NCBI GenBank assembly: GCA_030649165.1 | Contig: JAUSGG010000025.1 | Coordinates: 3,967-67,966 of the forward strand | DNA: 64,000 nt | Direction of reading: 5' to 3' | Source of the DNA: Armatimonadota bacterium | Lineage (GTDB): Bacteria > Armatimonadota > UBA5829 > JAUSEB01 | In this document: piece by piece, positions 1,668 through 37,365 of the stretch | How the letters are laid out: each line of letters begins with the position of its first letter | Position numbering within the stretch: position 1 is the stretch's first letter | Notes under the pieces: model-generated | The model's input: only the letters and a program-made list of their open reading frames with translations | What the model was told of the DNA's origin: nothing | Database searches by the model: none | Position numbers and translations under genes: made by a program

Positions 1668-4319
<2,652 letters not shown>

Positions 4320-4320
4320 A

Positions 4321-5397
4321 CTAGCTGATCCCGCAGGTACCAGAAATCACATAGTCTCTGAACCCAGGGAACTCCTTGTCTATATCGATCCACACTGCTT
4401 GTCGGACGTCCTCATGGCTCCGACAGCCCTCTGGGACATTGCAGGGCGGAAACCTCTCCGCAGAAGGATAGCCCCAGTCACTCTCGGAAAAGAAGGCTTT
4501 GAACTTCTCATTGTGGTACTCCGCTAGCCAGCGGTACTTGTCTACTATTCGGGGTCGGTCCAGATTCTTGCGGATCTGCTGGAGAATCTGGTCCCTGTGG
4601 TCCCTCATGTAATCGCCCTGCCATTTCGACTCGGAGAAGGCCTTTGCAAATTCTAGATAGTCGACGAACAATAGACCGTCAGGAGCTTTCTCTAACAACG
4701 AAGCGGCCTCCACGCGACATCGGTAGTCCGGCTCGATGAATCCTTTGACCTTCTCTGCAACAGCAGGGTCAACCACAATACGCGGGTAGATAGCTTTTTC
4801 CCTCTCGAACTCGAAGGCCTCTACAAGCCCGTGGCTGAATATCATCAAGTCGTTTTCGAAGTGTTTGCCAGTCACGATGCCACCACGTACGAAGAATCCG
4901 CTGTGCGCCATCGCCCACTGCATGAAGGCCAGTTCGTAAAGCATATCATTCAGATGGTCCAATGCACACGAAACGACCACGCAGTCAGAGAACATTCTCA
5001 CAGAAATCGGGCCAGGAAAGTACCTGGGCACGACCTCGGATATTTGTCTGAGTGTTCCGCTGAGATTCGCAATGATATGGCGTGCTCGTGCTAGATCGGA
5101 CTCCGCGTCCTCAATGATTTTCTTGAAGCCGAGTATATCTATGAACGCGACCAAGTGTTCATCGTATGATATCTCCGAGTTTTGCCAAGGGTTCTCAAGA
5201 GCGCGTGTTGCACCCAGCGCGATCGCTGCCTTCACGTGCTCGTCGCTCACACTCGGAAACTCTTTCTGAATCTCACTAGCGGTAGAACCTTCCGCAAGAC
5301 TGGCCAGGACGGTACGTAGAGTCACCCGCGTACCTTTCAGCACGGGCTCGCCTCCGCACACTTTGGCGTCACGCACGATGTAGTCTCTGTAATCCAT
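4321..5397 (-). CDS. DUF433 domain fused to nucleotide-cyclase/GGDEF-like palm domain plus ~130-aa C-terminal region of unknown function
   Basis: The N-terminal 70 aa (MDYRDYIVRDAKVCGGEPVLKGTRVTLRTVL...) are ~85% identical to the stand-alone DUF433 protein at 6454-6699. The following region has palm-domain motifs VAFIDILGFKKIIED (compare DxDhFKxIND / FxDIxGFT), MFSDCVVVS (compare GGDEFvv / iGDa) and FVRGGIVTG (compare RiGihtG). It ends 1 nt before alaS. Confidence 0.6.
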   Translation of the reverse strand: MDYRDYIVRDAKVCGGEPVLKGTRVTLRTVLASLAEGSTASEIQKEFPSVSDEHVKAAIALGATRALENPWQNSEISYDEHLVAFIDILGFKKIIEDAESDLARARHIIANLSGTLRQISEVVPRYFPGPISVRMFSDCVVVSCALDHLNDMLYELAFMQWAMAHSGFFVRGGIVTGKHFENDLMIFSHGLVEAFEFEREKAIYPRIVVDPAVAEKVKGFIEPDYRCRVEAASLLEKAPDGLLFVDYLEFAKAFSESKWQGDYMRDHRDQILQQIRKNLDRPRIVDKYRWLAEYHNEKFKAFFSESDWGYPSAERFPPCNVPEGCRSHEDVRQAVWIDIDKEFPGFRDYVISGTCGIS

Positions 5398-5410
5398 GTG
5401 CCAACTCGAC

Positions 5411-5614
5411 CTAGACCTTGCCGGGGTCTCTCAGTTGTGTGAGCACACTGTCAAAATCCTCCGGCGTTTCCTGTCCGCGCTCGATCTTCGCCAATAGGTC
5501 GTCCAATTCTTCTGTCAGTTTAAGATAAGCCCTATAGCCAATGACCACCGACTTCTTCCGCCCTTTGTCGTCAACTATGTACTGGATACTTCCTGTTCTT
5601 GGCATCAATCTCAC
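5411..5614 (-). CDS. small conserved protein (67 aa), first gene of cassette A; possible antitoxin/adaptor
   Basis: 84% identical to the 67-aa ORF at 6708-6911. It sits 13 nt upstream of the DUF433-fusion gene. Confidence 0.55.
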   Translation of the reverse strand: MRLMPRTGSIQYIVDDKGRKKSVVIGYRAYLKLTEELDDLLAKIERGQETPEDFDSVLTQLRDPGKV

Positions 5615-5638
5615 CTCTCCCGAGCGCCTGTTCTCCCC

Positions 5639-5950
5639 TCACGCCACATACACCCGCTCCAGGTTCTCCAGAATATGCCTTCGACGGATGTAATTTTCGC
5701 TTTGTTCGACTGACTCCCGCTCGACTAGATCGACTTTTCTTCCGAGAAGACCGCTCAGTTCGTCCTCGACGCGCACGAGGTCGAACAGACTGTATCGCGC
5801 ATCCGTAGCGAACGTGACGAGAACATCTACGTCGCTATCCGGCCTGAAATCCTCGCGCAGCACGGAGCCGAACAGCGCAAACTCGGTTATCTTCCAATGC
5901 TTGCAGAAGTCAGCGATCTTCTCATGGTCAACCGGAATGTGTAACGTCAT
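5639..5950 (-). CDS. nucleotidyltransferase (MNT / Pol-beta superfamily), apparently orphan (no HEPN partner)
   Basis: [20 protein letters not shown] motif (GS...DxD NTase). The start is moved to the internal Met MTLHIPVDH, since the upstream 29 codons lie in intergenic repeat. Confidence 0.75.
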
Positions 5951-6085
5951 CACTGTCTCCGTAAGGCGACTTCTAAAACTCACGATTCCTAAGAGAAGGC
6001 TGGTTTCGGCATTTGAAATGCCGAAACACCGGCGCAACTGACCAGTTGTTCTCCGTGCGCTCGTATACGACTACGTAGTCTTTCA

Positions 6086-6457
6086 TCATTCTGCTGCCTG
6101 ACGCGGTTTCCGCACACGCACTTTATGGTCGGTCACTATGATAAAACAACCAGCCCAACTCTCGACGTCCTCCGTGCCGAAGACAGTTTGAAGACGTTCG
6201 CGTAAAGTGATACGGCTCGGTTCGCGCAATCGCACGACCACTATTCCCGAATGAACACCGAATACGAACCGACGCAAGTCCGAGAAATCCATGTCTTGAG
6301 TAACAAACAGCCGACCGGCTTGCTGGGCTGCTGCCCATACTTTCTCATCGTCCGCCCCCTGACAGCCCTCAATGGGAACAGTATCCACATCGTGTCCGAA
6401 GGCGGCAATAACGTCACGAAGGGACGCCGGCAGGTTTTCGTCCAGCTTGATCCTCAT
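6086..6457 (-). CDS. DUF5615 (PIN-like) toxin
   Basis: MRIKLDENLPASLRDVIAAFGHDVDTV...FVTQDMDF is typical of DUF5615. 4-nt ATGA overlap with the upstream DUF433 gene. Confidence 0.8.
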   Translation of the reverse strand: MRIKLDENLPASLRDVIAAFGHDVDTVPIEGCQGADDEKVWAAAQQAGRLFVTQDMDFSDLRRFVFGVHSGIVVVRLREPSRITLRERLQTVFGTEDVESWAGCFIIVTDHKVRVRKPRQAAE

Positions 6458-6699
6458 ACAGCCCCGGGCACTCCCGGCGCCGGAAGATCCTCCTGAGCTG
6501 AAGTCGCCGCAAACGCGATCGCCGCCCGGATGTGATCCTCGTTGAGGGTCGGAAAATCCTGCAGTATCTCGGCTACGGTTGATCCTTCAGCCAGACTCGC
6601 AAGCACAGTGCGCAAGGTTACCCGTGTGCCTTTCAGCACAGGCTGTCCGCCGCATACTTTGGCATCACGCACAATATAGTCTCTGTAGTCCATACGCAA
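6454..6699 (-). CDS. DUF433 antitoxin-like protein
   Basis: MDYRDYIVRDAKVCGGQPVLKGTRVTLRTVLASLAEGST... is a DUF433 signature. Translationally coupled to the DUF5615 gene. Confidence 0.8.
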   Translation of the reverse strand: MRMDYRDYIVRDAKVCGGQPVLKGTRVTLRTVLASLAEGSTVAEILQDFPTLNEDHIRAAIAFAATSAQEDLPAPGVPGAV

Positions 6700-6707
6700 A
6701 CTCGAAT

Positions 6708-6911
6708 CTACACTTTGCCGGGATTTCTCAGTTGTGCGAGGACAGTATCGAAGTCCTCCGGTGTTTCCTGTCCGCGCTCGATCTTCACTAGAAGATCGTC
6801 CAAGTCTTCCATGAGCCTGAGGTACGCCTTATAACTCATCACCACCGATTTCTTCCGGCCTTTGTCGTCGACTATGTATTCGATACTGCCTGTTCTCGGC
6901 ATTAGTCTCAC
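6708..6911 (-). CDS. small conserved protein (67 aa), paralog of 5411-5614; first gene of cassette B
   Basis: MRLMPRTGSIEYIVDDKGRKKSVVMSYKAYLRLMEDLDDL... 8 nt upstream of the DUF433 gene. Confidence 0.55.
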   Translation of the reverse strand: MRLMPRTGSIEYIVDDKGRKKSVVMSYKAYLRLMEDLDDLLVKIERGQETPEDFDTVLAQLRNPGKV

Positions 6912-7045
6912 TTCTGACGACGGTCCAACTCAGAACTCAGCGCTCCTAAGGACAGCCGGTTTCGGGCCGGCGCTGGCTGCCTGCTTCGGCAGCGACGCTG
7001 CCGCTCTGCTACCGAAGGATCGGAAACACAGCTTTTCGATAGAGA

Positions 7046-7074
7046 GGCTTCGGCTTCAAAGAACAAGCCGAAGC
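7046..7074. repeat. hairpin repeat GGCTTCGGCTTCAAAGAACAAGCCGAAGC (10-bp stem); other copies at about 32390-32416, 37581-37610 and 41681-41710
   Basis: Perfect inverted repeat GCTTCGGCTT / AAGCCGAAGC seen at four intergenic sites. Confidence 0.7.
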
Positions 7075-7137
7075 ATCGACACTCAGCGCTCAGAACTCCC
7101 TACTTGCCGGGCCAACTGCCCGGGCTCGCTATCGCTT

Positions 7138-8082
7138 TCAGCAGCTTGAGCCTTCCTGGCTCCTGATGAACATCTCCGTGGTCGCCTGGTCCTTTACGCC
7201 GGTTGTCGCGCCCAATTCAGTTACGCAAAACGCGCCGACCGCGTTTGCGAACTTGCCGGTGCGCTCCAGGTCCCATCCGTTGACCAGGCCCGTGAGGAAT
7301 CCCGCCACGAAGCAGTCTCCCGCGCCAAGAGCGTCAATGGCTCGCACGTCAAACGGCTTTACAGACATTTCCGCCTCGCGGGTCCGTATGTAGCTTCCTT
7401 CCTCGCCCATCTTCAGGGCGACGGTCCCCACGCCCGCGTCGAGGAGCGCTTTGGCTATGTCGGCGGGCGACTTTTTCCCGGTCAGCATTTCGGCCTCAGC
7501 GATGCTCGGCAGGAAGTAGTCTATGTGCGGCAGGCAGGGGGCAAGGACCTTCATCCACTTGCCGGTGGCGTCCCAGCAGGTGTCGAGGCACGTGGTCACG
7601 CCAAGCGACTTCGCTTTTTTCAAGATGTTAGCGGTCGGTTGGCCGTCGATGTTGGGCATGAGGAAGCTGCCGGCCACGTGCAATATGCGGCTCTTGGCGA
7701 CAAGGTCCATGTCCACGTCGTCTTCGACCAAATCCCTGTTCGCGCCGAAGTAATGGAGAAAGCTGCGCTCGCCGTCGCTGTGCACCATCACCATCGTGGC
7801 TGAAGTGTTCGAGCGGTCGCTGCGGACGACTCCGCTGGGGTCGATGCCGTGGCTTTTCAGGCGGGAGATCATGAAGTCGCCGAAACCGTCGTTGCCGACC
7901 TTGCCGATGACGGCGACGTCCACACCGATTTTGGCAAGAGCGATGCCGGTGTTGGCGGCGCAGCCTCCTGTGTGAAGCTCCATTCGATCGACAAGCTCCA
8001 GCTCGCCGCGCCCCGGCCACTTATCGACCGGCTTGCCGACAACGTCGGCCACAAGAATCCCCAGACATACTACGTCGGACAT
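7138..8082 (-). CDS. PfkB-family carbohydrate kinase (ribokinase / 2-keto-3-deoxygluconate kinase-like)
   Basis: 314 aa. N-terminal GILVADVV...GG, and C-terminal DALGAGDCFVAGFL PfkB signature. Confidence 0.9.
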   Translation of the reverse strand: MSDVVCLGILVADVVGKPVDKWPGRGELELVDRMELHTGGCAANTGIALAKIGVDVAVIGKVGNDGFGDFMISRLKSHGIDPSGVVRSDRSNTSATMVMVHSDGERSFLHYFGANRDLVEDDVDMDLVAKSRILHVAGSFLMPNIDGQPTANILKKAKSLGVTTCLDTCWDATGKWMKVLAPCLPHIDYFLPSIAEAEMLTGKKSPADIAKALLDAGVGTVALKMGEEGSYIRTREAEMSVKPFDVRAIDALGAGDCFVAGFLTGLVNGWDLERTGKFANAVGAFCVTELGATTGVKDQATTEMFIRSQEGSSC

Positions 8083-26967: not shown

Positions 26968-27241
26968 CGGGGTCGAAGGTTGTCTGTTAGGTTTATTGGA
27001 GCGGGCCGGAGCTTCCGACCCGCTCATTCTTATCTGCTGGGAGTTCTGAGTTCTGAGTTTAGAGTTCGATCCTTCGGTAGCAGAGCGGTAGCGACGCTGC
27101 CGAAGGACGCGCAAGCACGACGTCACCGGCGCCCGGTCCTATCCCGCGGGAACGGCCTCTCTTAGCTGACGTTTCAGCGTTGCGACCTGTAGTTCCCGCG
27201 GCGCCTCCGGCGTTTCGTTAGGAGCGCTGGGTTCTGAGTCT

Positions 27242-30658: not shown

Positions 30659-31693
30659 TCACGCCGGGTCTTGCGCGGGCGGGAGAACAGATTTGGGTTC
30701 CGAGAAGAAGGCTTCCTCTAACGTGATTGCACGTGGGGCACGTGCCAAGCGGCTGTCGCGCGTCAATGTGTACTCGCACGAGCCACCAATAGTGCCGTCG
30801 TCCCGCCGCCACATGAAGTCTGGCTTCAGCGAATAGAGGTGGCGCGTGGCCACATCGGCTGTGTTCGTGTTGAGTTCCGAAACCTTGGAACAGTTCGCGT
30901 AAAGAACCTTGGGCAAGAGCTTGTCGCTAATGAACAGTGCCAGATCGGTGTTCAAAGGCATCATGATCTGAGGCCGACACTGAAGCCGACTGCCGGATGG
31001 CCTTCGTGGTATCTCGACTGTGGGGAATATGGCTACTGGATTGTCCGAGCAGATGAAGTATCCCGCTCCATCCCGTTTGACGACTAAAGACCAGTTGAGC
31101 ACGGATAGATCGCGAGCAAATGGTTCGAAATGATCCAAAAAGTCGAGGATCAGCCTGTTTTGCGGAACATCTATGCGGTAATTATCCCTGTCAACGAAAC
31201 GCTTCATCTGCTCATAGGTCACGGTGGTTGACTCAACGAAGCCATTCCTGCGCGCCTGTTCGAGGGTGTTCTCCCATTCCTCACGTGTAGCCACCTTTGA
31301 CCTAAGGTATCTCTTCGAATCCAGTTCATTGTAGGTGGTCAACTTCTGGCGGAAGTGAAGTGTCCTCCCAGCCTGGCCTGCGACGAAGTAGATCAGGTTG
31401 ACGAAATCGTCTCCCTCCGGCAGGGTGTGATTCTGAGCCATTCTCCTAATAATGGGTGCCGCGTTGCTTTCGATCTGCCCCAGCAGGTCTTCTACGATAT
31501 TCTGGTCGATGCCCGGCGCATTTATTCGGTTGAAATCTTTGCGAACTGCTTCATTGACTGGCGTACCGATCCTGGAACATCCATCATCTTGGAGGTCGAA
31601 CACCCAGAATTTGCCATACTTATCCCCCGTGTCGGTGAACCCACCTAAGTAGAATTGCGATACGAAATGATTGCGGCGCGCTTGTTTAGCCAT
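30659..31693 (-). CDS. DUF4238 domain protein
   Basis: 344 aa. N-terminal RNHFVSQFYLGGF matches the DUF4238 H(H/Y)(V/I)PQFYL+GF signature. Local GC ~50% against a ~65% background. Confidence 0.65.
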   Translation of the reverse strand: MAKQARRNHFVSQFYLGGFTDTGDKYGKFWVFDLQDDGCSRIGTPVNEAVRKDFNRINAPGIDQNIVEDLLGQIESNAAPIIRRMAQNHTLPEGDDFVNLIYFVAGQAGRTLHFRQKLTTYNELDSKRYLRSKVATREEWENTLEQARRNGFVESTTVTYEQMKRFVDRDNYRIDVPQNRLILDFLDHFEPFARDLSVLNWSLVVKRDGAGYFICSDNPVAIFPTVEIPRRPSGSRLQCRPQIMMPLNTDLALFISDKLLPKVLYANCSKVSELNTNTADVATRHLYSLKPDFMWRRDDGTIGGSCEYTLTRDSRLARAPRAITLEEAFFSEPKSVLPPAQDPA

Positions 31694-31708
31694 AATCTCC
31701 GTCGCTGT

Positions 31709-32362
31709 TCAGGCCGAAGATCCCATATCTTTCACGTACCTCTCAATGAGCTCGCCCAAGTGCGGTGCCCTTTTCGCGACTTGGAGACATACGTCTCTCA
31801 AGTTGTCTTTGATGATCTGGTGGTTCTCAGGCGACACACCCGGATCCAACGTCTTCTGCCAATAAAAGCGGGACTCTGCGATCTGCTCATTTAGAAAACC
31901 CACTTGCACTTTAATCTCCGCCAACAGACTCTGAGTAGCATGCCCCAGCATCGCGAGATGTCCCAATTGCGAATCCAGGTACGGCGTGTTGAGGCTCCTC
32001 AAGGAAAGCGCGCGCCGTTCGGCGTCCTCATCGCGTTGCATTAGAACGGTGAGTTCCGCGTCGGGGTACGCGAGCAATGCGCCGATGGCTTTGCTTTGCT
32101 CTTTGTCTGCGTTCGGGCCGTCGTATGCATCAAAGACCGACTTAACCCACTCTAGAAGCGGCCTGTTCGGAGCACCAAAGCGTTTAGCGATATGATATGT
32201 GGTTGCCGCAAGCTTGGCCTGGAGTGCCCGAAGTTCTGCACCTATGGCAGGCTTCACTTCAGCAATCTCTCGACGCCTTCGTATCCCGTCGACAATGATG
32301 GGAGAGAGTACGCCCAGCAGCCATCCCAAGAAGAGGAACAGAACGCTCGGAACCTCGCTCAT
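31709..32362 (-). CDS. hypothetical protein with single N-terminal TM helix
   Basis: Start at MSEVPSVLFLFLGWLLGVLSPIIV, preceded by AGGTGAAGGTGCT. The track's 290-aa version extends into the intergenic hairpin repeat. 15 nt upstream of the DUF4238 gene. Confidence 0.55.
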   Translation of the reverse strand: MSEVPSVLFLFLGWLLGVLSPIIVDGIRRRREIAEVKPAIGAELRALQAKLAATTYHIAKRFGAPNRPLLEWVKSVFDAYDGPNADKEQSKAIGALLAYPDAELTVLMQRDEDAERRALSLRSLNTPYLDSQLGHLAMLGHATQSLLAEIKVQVGFLNEQIAESRFYWQKTLDPGVSPENHQIIKDNLRDVCLQVAKRAPHLGELIERYVKDMGSSA

Positions 32363-35349: not shown

Positions 35350-35757
35350 TTAGGCGCTGTCGTCGAAGCCAAGATAGCGGGCTGCCCAGCGAACAACCGC
35401 CTCAGCCAAACGAACGGCTTCTCGGTAATCCTCTTCCGTGAGTGGTTCTTCCTCGCCGGGGTAGCGGGTTGTGACGGCGTAGGCGCTTAGGCGAGCCGAA
35501 TCGTCAACTTCGGGGGAACGCGGGATGTCCGCGGGTAGCAGGTCGAGGAGTTTCTGTAGGTTGTGTGTATAGGGGAAATCGACGCCGGCCGCCACGAGTA
35601 TCGCTTTGAGGCTCTTCTCGACCGCCTGTTGGGCGTGGTAGCAAAGTGTCTCATACATGCCGTATTCGGGCAGAGGGCCGCGCGCCATAGCAAGATCGGC
35701 CCTGGCGTATTGCATCCATTGTTGAGGTGAGCCGAAAGCTGGACGTTCAGGCGGCAT
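35350..35757 (-). CDS. HEPN domain toxin-like protein
   Basis: YHAQQAVEKSLKA ... TRYPGEE is typical of HEPN. Confidence 0.8.
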   Translation of the reverse strand: MPPERPAFGSPQQWMQYARADLAMARGPLPEYGMYETLCYHAQQAVEKSLKAILVAAGVDFPYTHNLQKLLDLLPADIPRSPEVDDSARLSAYAVTTRYPGEEEPLTEEDYREAVRLAEAVVRWAARYLGFDDSA

Positions 35758-36076
35758 AGATCTCCTTGCCTTCGCGAAGGACTGCCCGGTATATGAGGCC
35801 TATCGTGTCCTTGTGTTTTTCGAGGTCCGTCGGGGTAGCGACTACGATATCGACGGCGACCGAGATGCCGGATAGGCGCTGGTAGAGGTCCATCGCCGTA
35901 TGGCGGCGGTGCGTGCCGTCCGGCATTACGACCATAACGTCGATGTCGCTGTCCGGCCCGGCCTGGCCGCGAGCAGCGGAGCCGAACAGGATGATGCGCA
36001 ACGGATGCGCGGCTTCGACGATGCGCTGAACCAATTCATCAATCTCTGCTTTGTTGGGTCGTTCCGGATAGGTCAT
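35747..36076 (-). CDS. MNT nucleotidyltransferase antitoxin-like
   Basis: LFGSAARGQAGPDSDIDVMVV. 11-nt overlap with the HEPN gene. Confidence 0.85.
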   Translation of the reverse strand: MTYPERPNKAEIDELVQRIVEAAHPLRIILFGSAARGQAGPDSDIDVMVVMPDGTHRRHTAMDLYQRLSGISVAVDIVVATPTDLEKHKDTIGLIYRAVLREGKEIYAA

Positions 36077-36384
36077 GATGTAACCCGGCGATATTATACC
36101 ACACGGGCGGGGAGGTGTTTCGCGGGGTTGGCGGATGAATATCCGCGGGAGTCAACCGGGATACATATCCCGGTGGATCGGTTTCCAGCCACATAATGCG
36201 AATGGAGACAGTGCAGTAAAGACGAGTTCTGGACTGTGGCAGTAAGGAGTTGTGCCGGCGATTGACAAAAACTGTCTCTTCTCTTATAGTTGAGGCAACC
36301 TGGAGCAGCCTTTGTCAATCGTGCAATGGTTGGCAGCATAGCCGTGGGTCCACGTACATTGCCTCCGAGGAGGAACAGGATCTG

Positions 36385-37365
36385 ATGAATTGGGTGGAAA
36401 GGGCATTGAACACAGAGAAGTTGTGGCCGGCTCGTGTAGCATCATTCATAGCAAGCATTGTCACCTCCATCGCTAGCGTGGCGGGGGTCGTTCTCGCTGT
36501 GAAGTCCACTGCGGACGCAAAGTTTTGGTACGTTGCCATTTCCTCCAGCGTGTACATACTGTGCTTGCTGGTTATAATGGGTTTCTTCATGATGGCGGCT
36601 ATGCGTGACGGACGACGGCTAGCCGAGAGAGACCTCACAATACAAATGTTGACTGAGCAGAAAGATGGTGCCGCTGCGGAACTGCAGGAGGCAGAGCAGC
36701 GTATATCAGTGTGTCGGCGATCGTTCGTCAGTATGCATGAGGTGGCCCATCTGTTTAGAGACGCAATGGCTCCCGCATTCATACACGACGGCTCCGCGAC
36801 AATAGACGACATGTACTTCGAGAGGATTCTGGACGCGCTAAAATCCGTCCTCGACCAATGGACTGGATTCGACACAGCACTCTCCATAAAGCTCTTTGTG
36901 GATGAACATAAGACTCTCAGAACGCTCTGTCGCGATGGGTTCTCAAAGCCCATCAGGGGTATGGATGATGACGAAAACACCTTCAAGGCCGACAAGAACA
37001 CGGCCTTCAACGTCATAATGAATGGAGAGCGATATTTTGCCTGCGGGGATGTGACCGTGGAGCCACACTATCTGAACGAGACGCCGAATTATGGCAAGCT
37101 CTATAGATCGACAATAGTCGTGCCGATAAAATTCTATGGGGGAGGGAAGAAGCTGCACTACGGCTTCCTGACGGCCGACTGGAAAGAGGCCGACGCCTTT
37201 GATCCGCAAACGGACCATTTACTTCTGGGTACCGTAAGTGATATGATAGTTCCACTTTTGGCCGAGTACAACAGAAGTTTAGGAATGGCCCAAAGTAGCC
37301 CAAAACCCATTAGCGCCAAAGTCGAGAATGAGGAAGAGGAGATCCTAGATGCCCGTAAAGTATGA
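36385..37365 (+). CDS. two-TM membrane protein with GAF-like cytoplasmic domain
   Basis: Start at ATG 36385 behind GAGGAGGAAC. Helices FIASIVTSIASVAGVVLAV and VAISSSVYILCLLVIMGFFMMAA. C-terminal STIVVPIKFYGGGKKLHYGFLTAD resembles the GAF ...vvPi...g.l.gvL motif. GC ~48%. Confidence 0.6.
   Translation: MNWVERALNTEKLWPARVASFIASIVTSIASVAGVVLAVKSTADAKFWYVAISSSVYILCLLVIMGFFMMAAMRDGRRLAERDLTIQMLTEQKDGAAAELQEAEQRISVCRRSFVSMHEVAHLFRDAMAPAFIHDGSATIDDMYFERILDALKSVLDQWTGFDTALSIKLFVDEHKTLRTLCRDGFSKPIRGMDDDENTFKADKNTAFNVIMNGERYFACGDVTVEPHYLNETPNYGKLYRSTIVVPIKFYGGGKKLHYGFLTADWKEADAFDPQTDHLLLGTVSDMIVPLLAEYNRSLGMAQSSPKPISAKVENEEEEILDARKV

Follow-up and report, generated by a model that had tools for sequence, protein, structure and literature searches.

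Does the small protein encoded directly ahead of DUF433 in two neighbouring gene cassettes act as the third component of a toxin-antitoxin (TA) system, or does it belong to modules of another kind? The question is raised by a 64-kilobase (kb) stretch of Armatimonadota DNA (contig JAUSGG010000025.1; the whole stretch is called the window, and positions refer to it), in which two tandem cassettes lie between a pfkB-type kinase gene and alaS, with all island genes from the kinase (8082-7138) to alaS (4319-1668) on the minus strand. Cassette B comprises a relB-like gene, a DUF433 gene and a DUF5615 PIN-like toxin gene; cassette A comprises a paralogous relB-like gene and a gene in which DUF433 is fused to a cyclase-like domain. 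An earlier note on this DNA described two paralogous cassettes with differing terminal modules, which our analysis bears out, and read the small protein and DUF433 as a conserved pairing in a three-component system, which it does not. We instead consider it probable that the region is a mosaic TA island at a lineage-specific recombination hot spot, in which cassette A is a fused TA and cassette B an ordinary pair. The window proteins are 100% identical to NCBI records of an Armatimonadota metagenome-assembled genome, and L-numbers label the related loci and contigs that we fetched for comparison.

On their own, the small proteins of the window gave weak Pfam matches only (RelB-like, E 7e-4; PhdYeFM, E 3e-3), scoring 19–20 bits against a cut-off of 27 for PF18506 and 13–18 bits against a cut-off of 29.8 for PF02604. 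A word-indexed search with the 64-amino-acid (aa) protein returned the protein itself and its paralogue, while an exhaustive profile search yielded 141 relatives, mostly of 60–90 aa. Among the 37 relatives scanned, 35 matched the RelB-like family PF18506 (best E 5e-9) and 25 matched Phd/YefM PF02604, in agreement with the earlier guess of a Phd/YefM-like antitoxin fold, for which a profile search had been proposed. An AlphaFold2 (AF2) monomer model showed a beta-hairpin and two helices, with a predicted local distance difference test score (pLDDT) of 85. None of the PADLOC models covers the small protein, DUF433, DUF5615, the cyclase-like domain or homologues of that domain.

The neighbourhoods of these relatives were more telling. 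Using a six-sequence alignment, we retrieved related loci from genomes and metagenomes; 47 were fetched, and 45 of these contained enough downstream sequence. In 34 of the 45, a RelE/ParE gene overlaps the small gene or directly follows it (three of these 34 are frameshifted), 11 have no RelE downstream, and DUF433 lies downstream in none; all nine downstream open reading frames (ORFs) tested were ParE_toxin PF05016. Because RelE/ParE adjoins so often and DUF433 never, we assign the family of the small protein to the antitoxins of RelBE/ParDE-type modules, and the window copies would thus be RelB/Phd-type antitoxins, here without a RelE/ParE partner: such a gene was found neither beside either relB-like copy nor anywhere in the window. 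Their C-terminal part, presumably the RelE-binding one, is conserved with RelE-paired relatives, and the closest relatives (L012, L073, L038 and L035) are relB-relE modules at the same chromosomal site. The small proteins therefore resemble the RelB/Phd-YefM antitoxins of RelBE/ParDE modules (PF18506 and PF02604, with PF05016) in the matches of their relatives, the overlapping RelE/ParE genes and the shared site in sister genomes, and differ from them in lacking RelE/ParE within 64 kb and in scoring below the Pfam cut-offs. Elsewhere in the family, relE after the relB-like gene is split across reading frames in L015, L021 and L037, and a planctomycete-like clade (L017, L018, L043, L045 and L047) retains an almost identical relB and lacks relE altogether; from these split or absent relE genes we conclude that loss of the toxin first, with the antitoxin kept, is recurrent in the relB-like family.

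We then considered the DUF433-DUF5615 pair of cassette B from its own side. DUF433-B scored 73.5 bits (cut-off 23.6) and DUF5615 76.7 bits (cut-off 23.8), with the two genes in antitoxin-then-toxin order and their frames overlapping by 4 nucleotides (nt; ATGA). Homologues of DUF433-B are plentiful, with thousands of close ones reaching about 84–85% identity, and in the relatives examined DUF433 always stands directly before a DUF5615 gene, the pair recurring in L065-L072 with a DUF5615 protein 64–66% identical between the window and its L070 and L072 orthologues. In all eight places examined (two proteins, two genomic sites), the pair stood without a relB-like gene; three of these eight are at the same chromosomal site in relatives, and elsewhere in another Armatimonadota genome the pair stands alone. 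The earlier note had named in advance a pair that functions without the small protein as evidence against its proposal, and the count of triplets that it suggested found the pair free-standing in every place examined. COG2442 was predicted to be the antitoxin of PIN toxins, with no conserved neighbour other than PIN (Makarova et al. 2009, PMC2701414). DUF433-B is accordingly a predicted DNA-binding antitoxin of the adjoining PIN-like toxin, and cassette B would work as an ordinary type II pair in which the PIN-like nuclease DUF5615 is neutralised by a DNA-binding DUF433 protein. It is like the predicted COG2442/DUF433 pairs with PIN-like proteins (DUF5615, COG4634) in its domains, their order, the 4-nt overlap and the orthologous pairs in relatives, but has an intact relB-like gene in front; cassette A departs further, its DUF433 being joined to a non-PIN toxin, a combination not found in the 2009 survey.

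Comparison of the chromosomal site itself showed how the two modules came to adjoin. Between the kinase gene and alaS, related Armatimonadota carry relB-relE, DUF433-DUF5615, MNT-HEPN (MNT, minimal nucleotidyltransferase), lone MNT and hicB modules; the kinase orthologues (L012, L030, L070-L073) are 61–88% identical in protein where measured, L012 is syntenic by DNA alignment, and alaS identity in relatives is 63–71%. L012 and L038 have the order kinase, relB, relE, hicB, alaS, L035 has relB, relE, alaS, and L073 has kinase, relB, relE. L072, by comparison, reads kinase, MNT (103 aa), DUF433, DUF5615, hicB, alaS, L070 and L071 read kinase, MNT stump (21 aa), DUF433, DUF5615, hicB, with L071 continuing into MNT2 and HEPN, and L030 reads kinase, relB, MNT2, HEPN, hicB. 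These arrangements show both that DUF433-DUF5615 stands without the small gene and that the small gene normally pairs with RelE. In the window, the RelE slot, from the relB stop to the hicB start, has been exactly replaced by a complete DUF433-DUF5615 pair, and a second block (MNT, relB-like copy A and the DUF433::cyclase-like fusion) cuts hicB after codon 16, with the fusion gene ending 2 nt before the alaS start codon.

The hicB breakpoint could be placed precisely. The ATG of the stump overlaps the DUF5615 stop codon (TGATG), tblastn with the HicB protein of L012 gave 81% identity over 16 aa at the stump (E 5e-6), and the DNA alignment diverges past codon 16, while L012, L038, L070, L071 and L072 carry a full 71-aa hicB at this position; the 16-codon stump thus marks a recombination breakpoint. 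A 25-nt palindrome at 6003-6027, of which no match was expected by chance, lies where the hicB homology ends, and may serve as operator or terminator or be a scar left by recombination. Stumps also occur in the relatives: L038 has a 20-codon DUF433 stump (150-209) upstream of relB, and in L070 (2469-2531) and L071 (1528-1590) DUF433 is preceded by the final 21 codons of the 103-aa MNT gene. These stumps record further module replacements.

The two window copies of the relB-DUF433 pairing are themselves related by descent. At the DNA level, 5411-5623 matches 6708-6920 with 80% identity (213 nt) and 5194-5409 matches 6490-6705 with 72% identity (216 nt), the repeat running continuously through the relB-like and DUF433 genes, such that a segment of about 430 nt is present twice. 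The small proteins share 56 of 67 residues (84%; 83% over the 64-aa form), far beyond chance, and the DUF433 domains are 76% identical over a 66-residue core (74% in a MAFFT pairwise alignment). Homology extends about 18 nt upstream of the relB-like ATG and includes the 13–14 nt that separate the relB stop from the DUF433 ATG; in copy B, the stop of the 67-aa frame lies 8 nt from a DUF433 TTG start and 14 nt from the ATG. Given one homologous junction, a continuous repeat and the nearness of DUF433 copy A to copy B, we conclude that the pairing arose once and was then duplicated (or arrived in tandem from a diverged allele), and because both copies trace to one joining event, they are not independent evidence of pairing. 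Independent acquisition of two DUF433 copies was rejected, as copy A is nearest to copy B (76% versus at most 73%) and the junctions are homologous; copy B is nonetheless closer to foreign relatives (85%) than to copy A. The duplication is old (dS, synonymous substitutions per site, 1.2–2.1), and all four frames have been kept under strong purifying selection: relB A and B differ by a dN (nonsynonymous substitutions per site) of 0.081 and a dS of 1.21, with a dN/dS ratio (omega) of 0.067, and the DUF433 copies have an omega of 0.069 at a dS of about 2. Since omega is about 0.07 at a dS above 1, the island genes are functioning rather than debris, although selection does not show that they work together.

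What, then, stands in the place of the PIN-like toxin in cassette A? The fusion protein consists of DUF433 (aa 1-66, nt 5200-5397), a linker, a full-length cyclase-fold domain (about aa 76-304, nt 4486-5172) and a C-terminal tail. The same fusion ORF is present in an independent Logan read assembly (L001), which rules out a frameshift error confined to a single assembly. A Foldseek search of the AF2 model of the fusion (pLDDT 85) against the PDB matched class III adenylyl and guanylyl cyclases with probability 1.0 (E 7e-5 to 1e-3), and also the Pycsar cyclic UMP (cUMP) synthase, so that the palm domain noted earlier on DUF433 appears from the model to have the palm-type, class III cyclase fold, a likeness at fold level only. 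At sequence level, Pfam, NCBIfam and the PDB yielded no match for the domain, with E values of up to 1–10 allowed, PDB sequence searches with a single sequence and with a profile gave nothing, and a BFVD search gave only distant cyclase-domain matches.

The domain belongs to a family of which we retrieved 227 proteins, typically of about 215–300 aa, with no Pfam domain among the members listed; DUF433 is attached only in the window protein among the 120 family members listed. Seven residues (D87, D138, G172, P205, R206, K287 and W290) are invariant in 62 family sequences and all are present in the fusion, the two invariant aspartates, putative metal ligands by analogy, sitting in FIDILGF and FSD motifs. 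Members are found beside integrases or AlpA on integrative and conjugative elements (ICEs), type I restriction-modification genes, SNIPE/GIY-YIG nucleases and insertion sequence elements, and on 38 IMG/VR contigs, one of them beside Abi_2. On the IMG/VR contig L087 (3274-6027), a homologue lies between DUF2971 and Abi_2 (AbiD-like) genes with a HicB-like gene nearby, a small prophage defence cluster by its look. In one subfamily, comprising L005-L008 (Klebsiella chromosomes) and L079, L080 and L082 (IMG/VR prophage contigs), a ParA/AAA_31 ATPase gene (347–356 aa) always precedes the homologue, overlapping it or lying 3 nt away; this two-gene module received no PADLOC assignment, with only weak PDC-M28B matches to the ATPase.

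One member of this family has been characterised. The fused domain matched phrog_23933 (E 2e-31), and hhalign of the family profile against PanT of phi52237 (YP_293707.1) gave a probability of 99.8% (E 2.3e-29, 229 columns), with BLASTP of the window protein against the same record giving 26% identity (E 1e-11). In NC_007145, gp8 (YP_293707.1) stands beside gp9, a DUF4065 protein, confirming the gene pair, and a Burkholderia prophage homologue accompanied by Panacea shares 96% identity with gp8; the Panacea gene lies 3 nt upstream of the cyclase-like homologue in two prophage contigs of Burkholderia (L101 and L102). The link to phi52237 came only via the IMG/VR scan, as searching the phage collection by tblastn with homologue P0003 gave nothing. 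PanT-PanA of phi52237 is a true type II TA whose toxin forms a complex with PanA, and PanT, described as a 'putative nucleotide cyclase' without a CDD hit, mainly blocks transcription and then translation (Kurata et al. 2022, PMC8832971). These alignments show that the fused domain is homologous to the validated PanT toxin of the Burkholderia prophage phi52237. On the strength of this homology, the swapped terminal module of cassette A is best read as a toxin swap, from PIN-like to cyclase-like, with antitoxin and toxin domains fused.

In this arrangement, a paralogous DUF433 domain would be covalently tied to a PanT(phi52237)-type toxin, acting as a cis antitoxin or autoinhibitor, or else as a DNA-binding autoregulator, and cassette A could possibly form a phage-triggered switch. 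The likeness to PanA-PanT lies in the homology of the C-terminal 280 aa of the fusion to PanT and in the predicted cyclase fold; the differences are that the partner is DUF433, not Panacea (no Panacea gene was found in the window island, where the fused DUF433 domain takes its place), that both are in a single polypeptide rather than in separate proteins, that identity is 26%, and that toxicity is demonstrated for PanT but predicted for the fusion. A second comparison is offered by the fused TA defence protein CapRel(SJ46), which reportedly combines a toxSAS and a pseudo-ZFD in a single chain: the fusion likewise joins toxin and antitoxin-type domains in one chain, suggesting cis autoinhibition by analogy only, but with DUF433 and cyclase-like domains, in reversed order, and with a phage trigger that is hypothetical. 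The relB-like genes, for their part, would be kept as working antitoxin or regulator genes rather than as an obligatory third component, perhaps as the promoter-proximal first cistron, or cross-neutralising RelE toxins encoded elsewhere.

Several points weigh against the reading of the island as a mosaic of a fused TA and an ordinary pair. The 64-aa proteins of the window do not reach the gathering cut-offs of Pfam, a Foldseek search of the PDB with the RelB-like monomer was uninformative, with no match at E <1, and the RelE search was confined to 64 kb of the genome, in the rest of which a RelE may be encoded. Most stand-alone cyclase-like homologues have no obvious antitoxin neighbour, so toxicity need not extend to all members, or their regulation may be internal, and we infer from position only that DUF433 neutralises the fused domain. 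Purifying selection on both relB copies beside DUF433 would also fit a functional partnership. Finally, L030 provides a second, independent case of relB before a complete foreign TA pair, here MNT2-HEPN with an ATGA overlap, which hints that relB may do more than linger.

The last two points also favour a true three-component system, in which the RelB-like protein would be an obligatory third partner (a regulator, a second antitoxin or a gate on DUF433) with either toxin. Three-gene TA systems with a separate regulator exist, as in omega-epsilon-zeta and paaR-paaA-parE, and the relB-to-DUF433 order is kept in both copies with a conserved 13–14-nt junction, under strong purifying selection on all frames across a dS above 1, while the L030 overlap would couple relB translationally to a different complete TA pair. 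We nevertheless regard such a system as unlikely, since the family's own partner is RelE in 34 of the 45 loci and DUF433 in none, the triplet is absent from all eight places with close DUF433 homologues, three of them at the same site, and the two window copies, coming from one junction event, count as a single observation. The conservation of the presumably RelE-binding C-terminal part with RelE-paired relatives and the restriction of the conserved neighbours of COG2442 to PIN (Makarova et al. 2009, PMC2701414) point the same way. A bolder variant appears equally doubtful: that RelB-like is a portable 'front-end' recruited repeatedly, as an anti-antitoxin or as a sensor or regulator, to gate complete TA modules (DUF433-PIN, DUF433::cyclase-toxin and the MNT-HEPN of L030), and that the fusion is an autoinhibited single-chain TA fired by a phage cue. 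If true, front-end and autoinhibited fusion together would be a tripartite modular defence architecture not yet described.

A further alternative concerns the fusion itself, which could be a signalling or regulatory enzyme in which DUF433 anchors or controls a nucleotide cyclase producing a second messenger, with no growth arrest. The fold matches to bona fide adenylyl and guanylyl cyclases and to the Pycsar cUMP synthase, the two conserved, putatively metal-binding aspartates and the many solitary homologues with no antitoxin beside them are consistent with this. Against it, the sequence itself matches no cyclase in Pfam or the PDB, the positions of the class III transition-state Asn and Arg are not conserved (as read from the alignment only), no effector gene adjoins, and the gene sits within a TA island, in the toxin position of the sister cassette. 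With the one characterised family member being a growth-arresting toxin neutralised by PanA, we consider a signalling role quite improbable. In another reading, the island would be a TA graveyard in which recombination has left the relB-like genes and the lone MNT gene, and possibly the fusion, without function, as the 16-codon hicB, the MNT and DUF433 stumps and frameshifted relE of relatives and the partnerless relB in about a quarter of related loci might suggest. This is very improbable, since all ORFs are intact, all family-invariant cyclase-like residues are present, the MNT gene has a dN of 0.10 to its orthologue at saturated dS with an intact GS...DxD motif, and, most strongly, omega is about 0.07 for relB and DUF433 at near-saturated dS.

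The lone MNT gene lies between the two cassettes, and its product matched PF01909 (NTP_transf_2, E 8e-16), NCBIfam MntA (E 2.5e-11, below its cut-off) and PADLOC PDC-S09 (E 9e-23), with the GS...DxD motif as read from the sequence. As had been noted earlier, no HEPN gene stands beside it, the next ORF being relB-like copy A, whose ATG lies 33 nt past the MNT stop. The L072 orthologue (82% identical; dN 0.10, dS saturated) likewise lacks HEPN and stands directly before DUF433. The 103-aa protein is thus like the MNT-HEPN (type VII) TA in being a minimal nucleotidyltransferase with the GS/DxD motif, and unlike it in that both the window protein and its L072 orthologue lack a HEPN partner. A tie between MNT and the cyclase-like family, raised by an MNT that follows the homologue in L002, was rejected as coincidence, the two MNTs being only 26% identical over 46 aa. 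Elsewhere in the window, a second low-GC patch carries a complete MNT (109 aa) and HEPN (135 aa) pair (35350-36076, minus strand), which resembles the MNT2-HEPN module at the hot spot in L030 and L071 and is adjoined by a 371-aa ORF with a hydrophobic N-terminal part (36250-37365, plus strand).

Table 1. Genes and sequence elements of the TA island and its flanks, in window positions.
Feature	Position	Strand	Remarks
pfkB-family sugar kinase gene, upstream flank	7138..8082	-	PF00294 called on orthologue; conserved hot-spot border
relB-like gene, copy B	6708..6902	-	64 aa from ATG 6902 (also in NCBI annotation); mechanical ORF from GTG 6911 gives 67 aa (6911-6708)
DUF433 (COG2442) gene, copy B, 79 aa	6454..6693	-	ORF 6699-6454, likely ATG 6693; PF04255 E 1e-20
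DUF5615 PIN-like toxin gene, 123 aa	6086..6457	-	PF18480 E 2e-21; PIN_10 E 7e-5
hicB-like stump	5973..6086	-	First 16 codons (6086-6039) conserved, then unrelated sequence and stop
Perfect 12+12 palindrome GTTTCGGCATTT-C-AAATGCCGAAAC	6003..6027	.	Just past hicB breakpoint, upstream of MNT gene
MNT-type minimal nucleotidyltransferase gene	5639..5950	-	103 aa from likely ATG 5950; ORF 6037-5639
relB-like gene, copy A, 64 aa	5411..5605	-	ATG 5605; ORF from GTG 5614 (5614-5411)
DUF433::cyclase-fold fusion gene, 358 aa	4321..5397	-	PF04255 E 4e-16 plus cyclase-like domain
alaS (alanyl-tRNA synthetase), downstream flank	1668..4319	-	Other conserved border; synteny with L012, L035 and L072

The features of the island and its flanks are collected in Table 1; Pfam scans over the window ORFs called DUF433 twice (E 1e-20 and 4e-16), DUF5615 and NTP_transf_2. 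GC content is 0.53–0.55 across 4001-7000 against about 0.60 in the rest of the window, in line with the lower local GC reported before, and the ORFs, junctions, 84% identity and DNA repeats on which the description of two paralogous cassettes rested are all present. The lowest-GC kilobase of the window is 31001-32000 (0.514), which may be another accessory island. Rfam and tRNA scans of the island region (4000-7400) gave no matches, and a scan of the region for sigma-70 promoters and terminators found nothing above chance. An intergenic hairpin, CCTTCGGTAGCAGAGCGG(C/T)AGCG(T/A)CGCTGCCGAAG, occurs twice in the window (6984-7018, minus strand; 27071-27105, plus strand), each copy preceded by repeats of GAGTTCTGAG and with AGTTCTGAG motifs beside the elements (6929-6937, 7089-7097 and 27042-27057). 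One copy lies inside the 235-nt spacer between the kinase gene and relB-B, a spacer of only 11–21 nt in relatives. The dispersed element has a REP/MITE-like look (repetitive extragenic palindrome or miniature inverted-repeat transposable element), and Rfam had no match for the copy inside the 4000-7400 scan.

The island is thus built from known TA families, and what is new is the DUF433::PanT-like fusion together with the long persistence of RelB in the absence of RelE. The 64-aa genes, unassigned until now, receive a family, as RelB-type antitoxins that lost RelE, and a single chromosomal site documents the exchange of entire TA modules, whose breakpoints coincide with gene boundaries or lie no more than about 15 nt from them. 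The fusion shows the DUF433 antitoxin domain with a partner other than a PIN toxin, and the analysis ties a widespread Pfam-less family (about 250 aa, phrog_23933), found in prophages, ICEs and defence-type islands, to its one experimentally validated member, PanT of phi52237. With a DUF433::toxin fusion and a PIN-bearing sister cassette in one genome, this Armatimonadota bacterium offers a natural pair for studying both DUF433 neutralisation and the action of the cyclase-like toxin.

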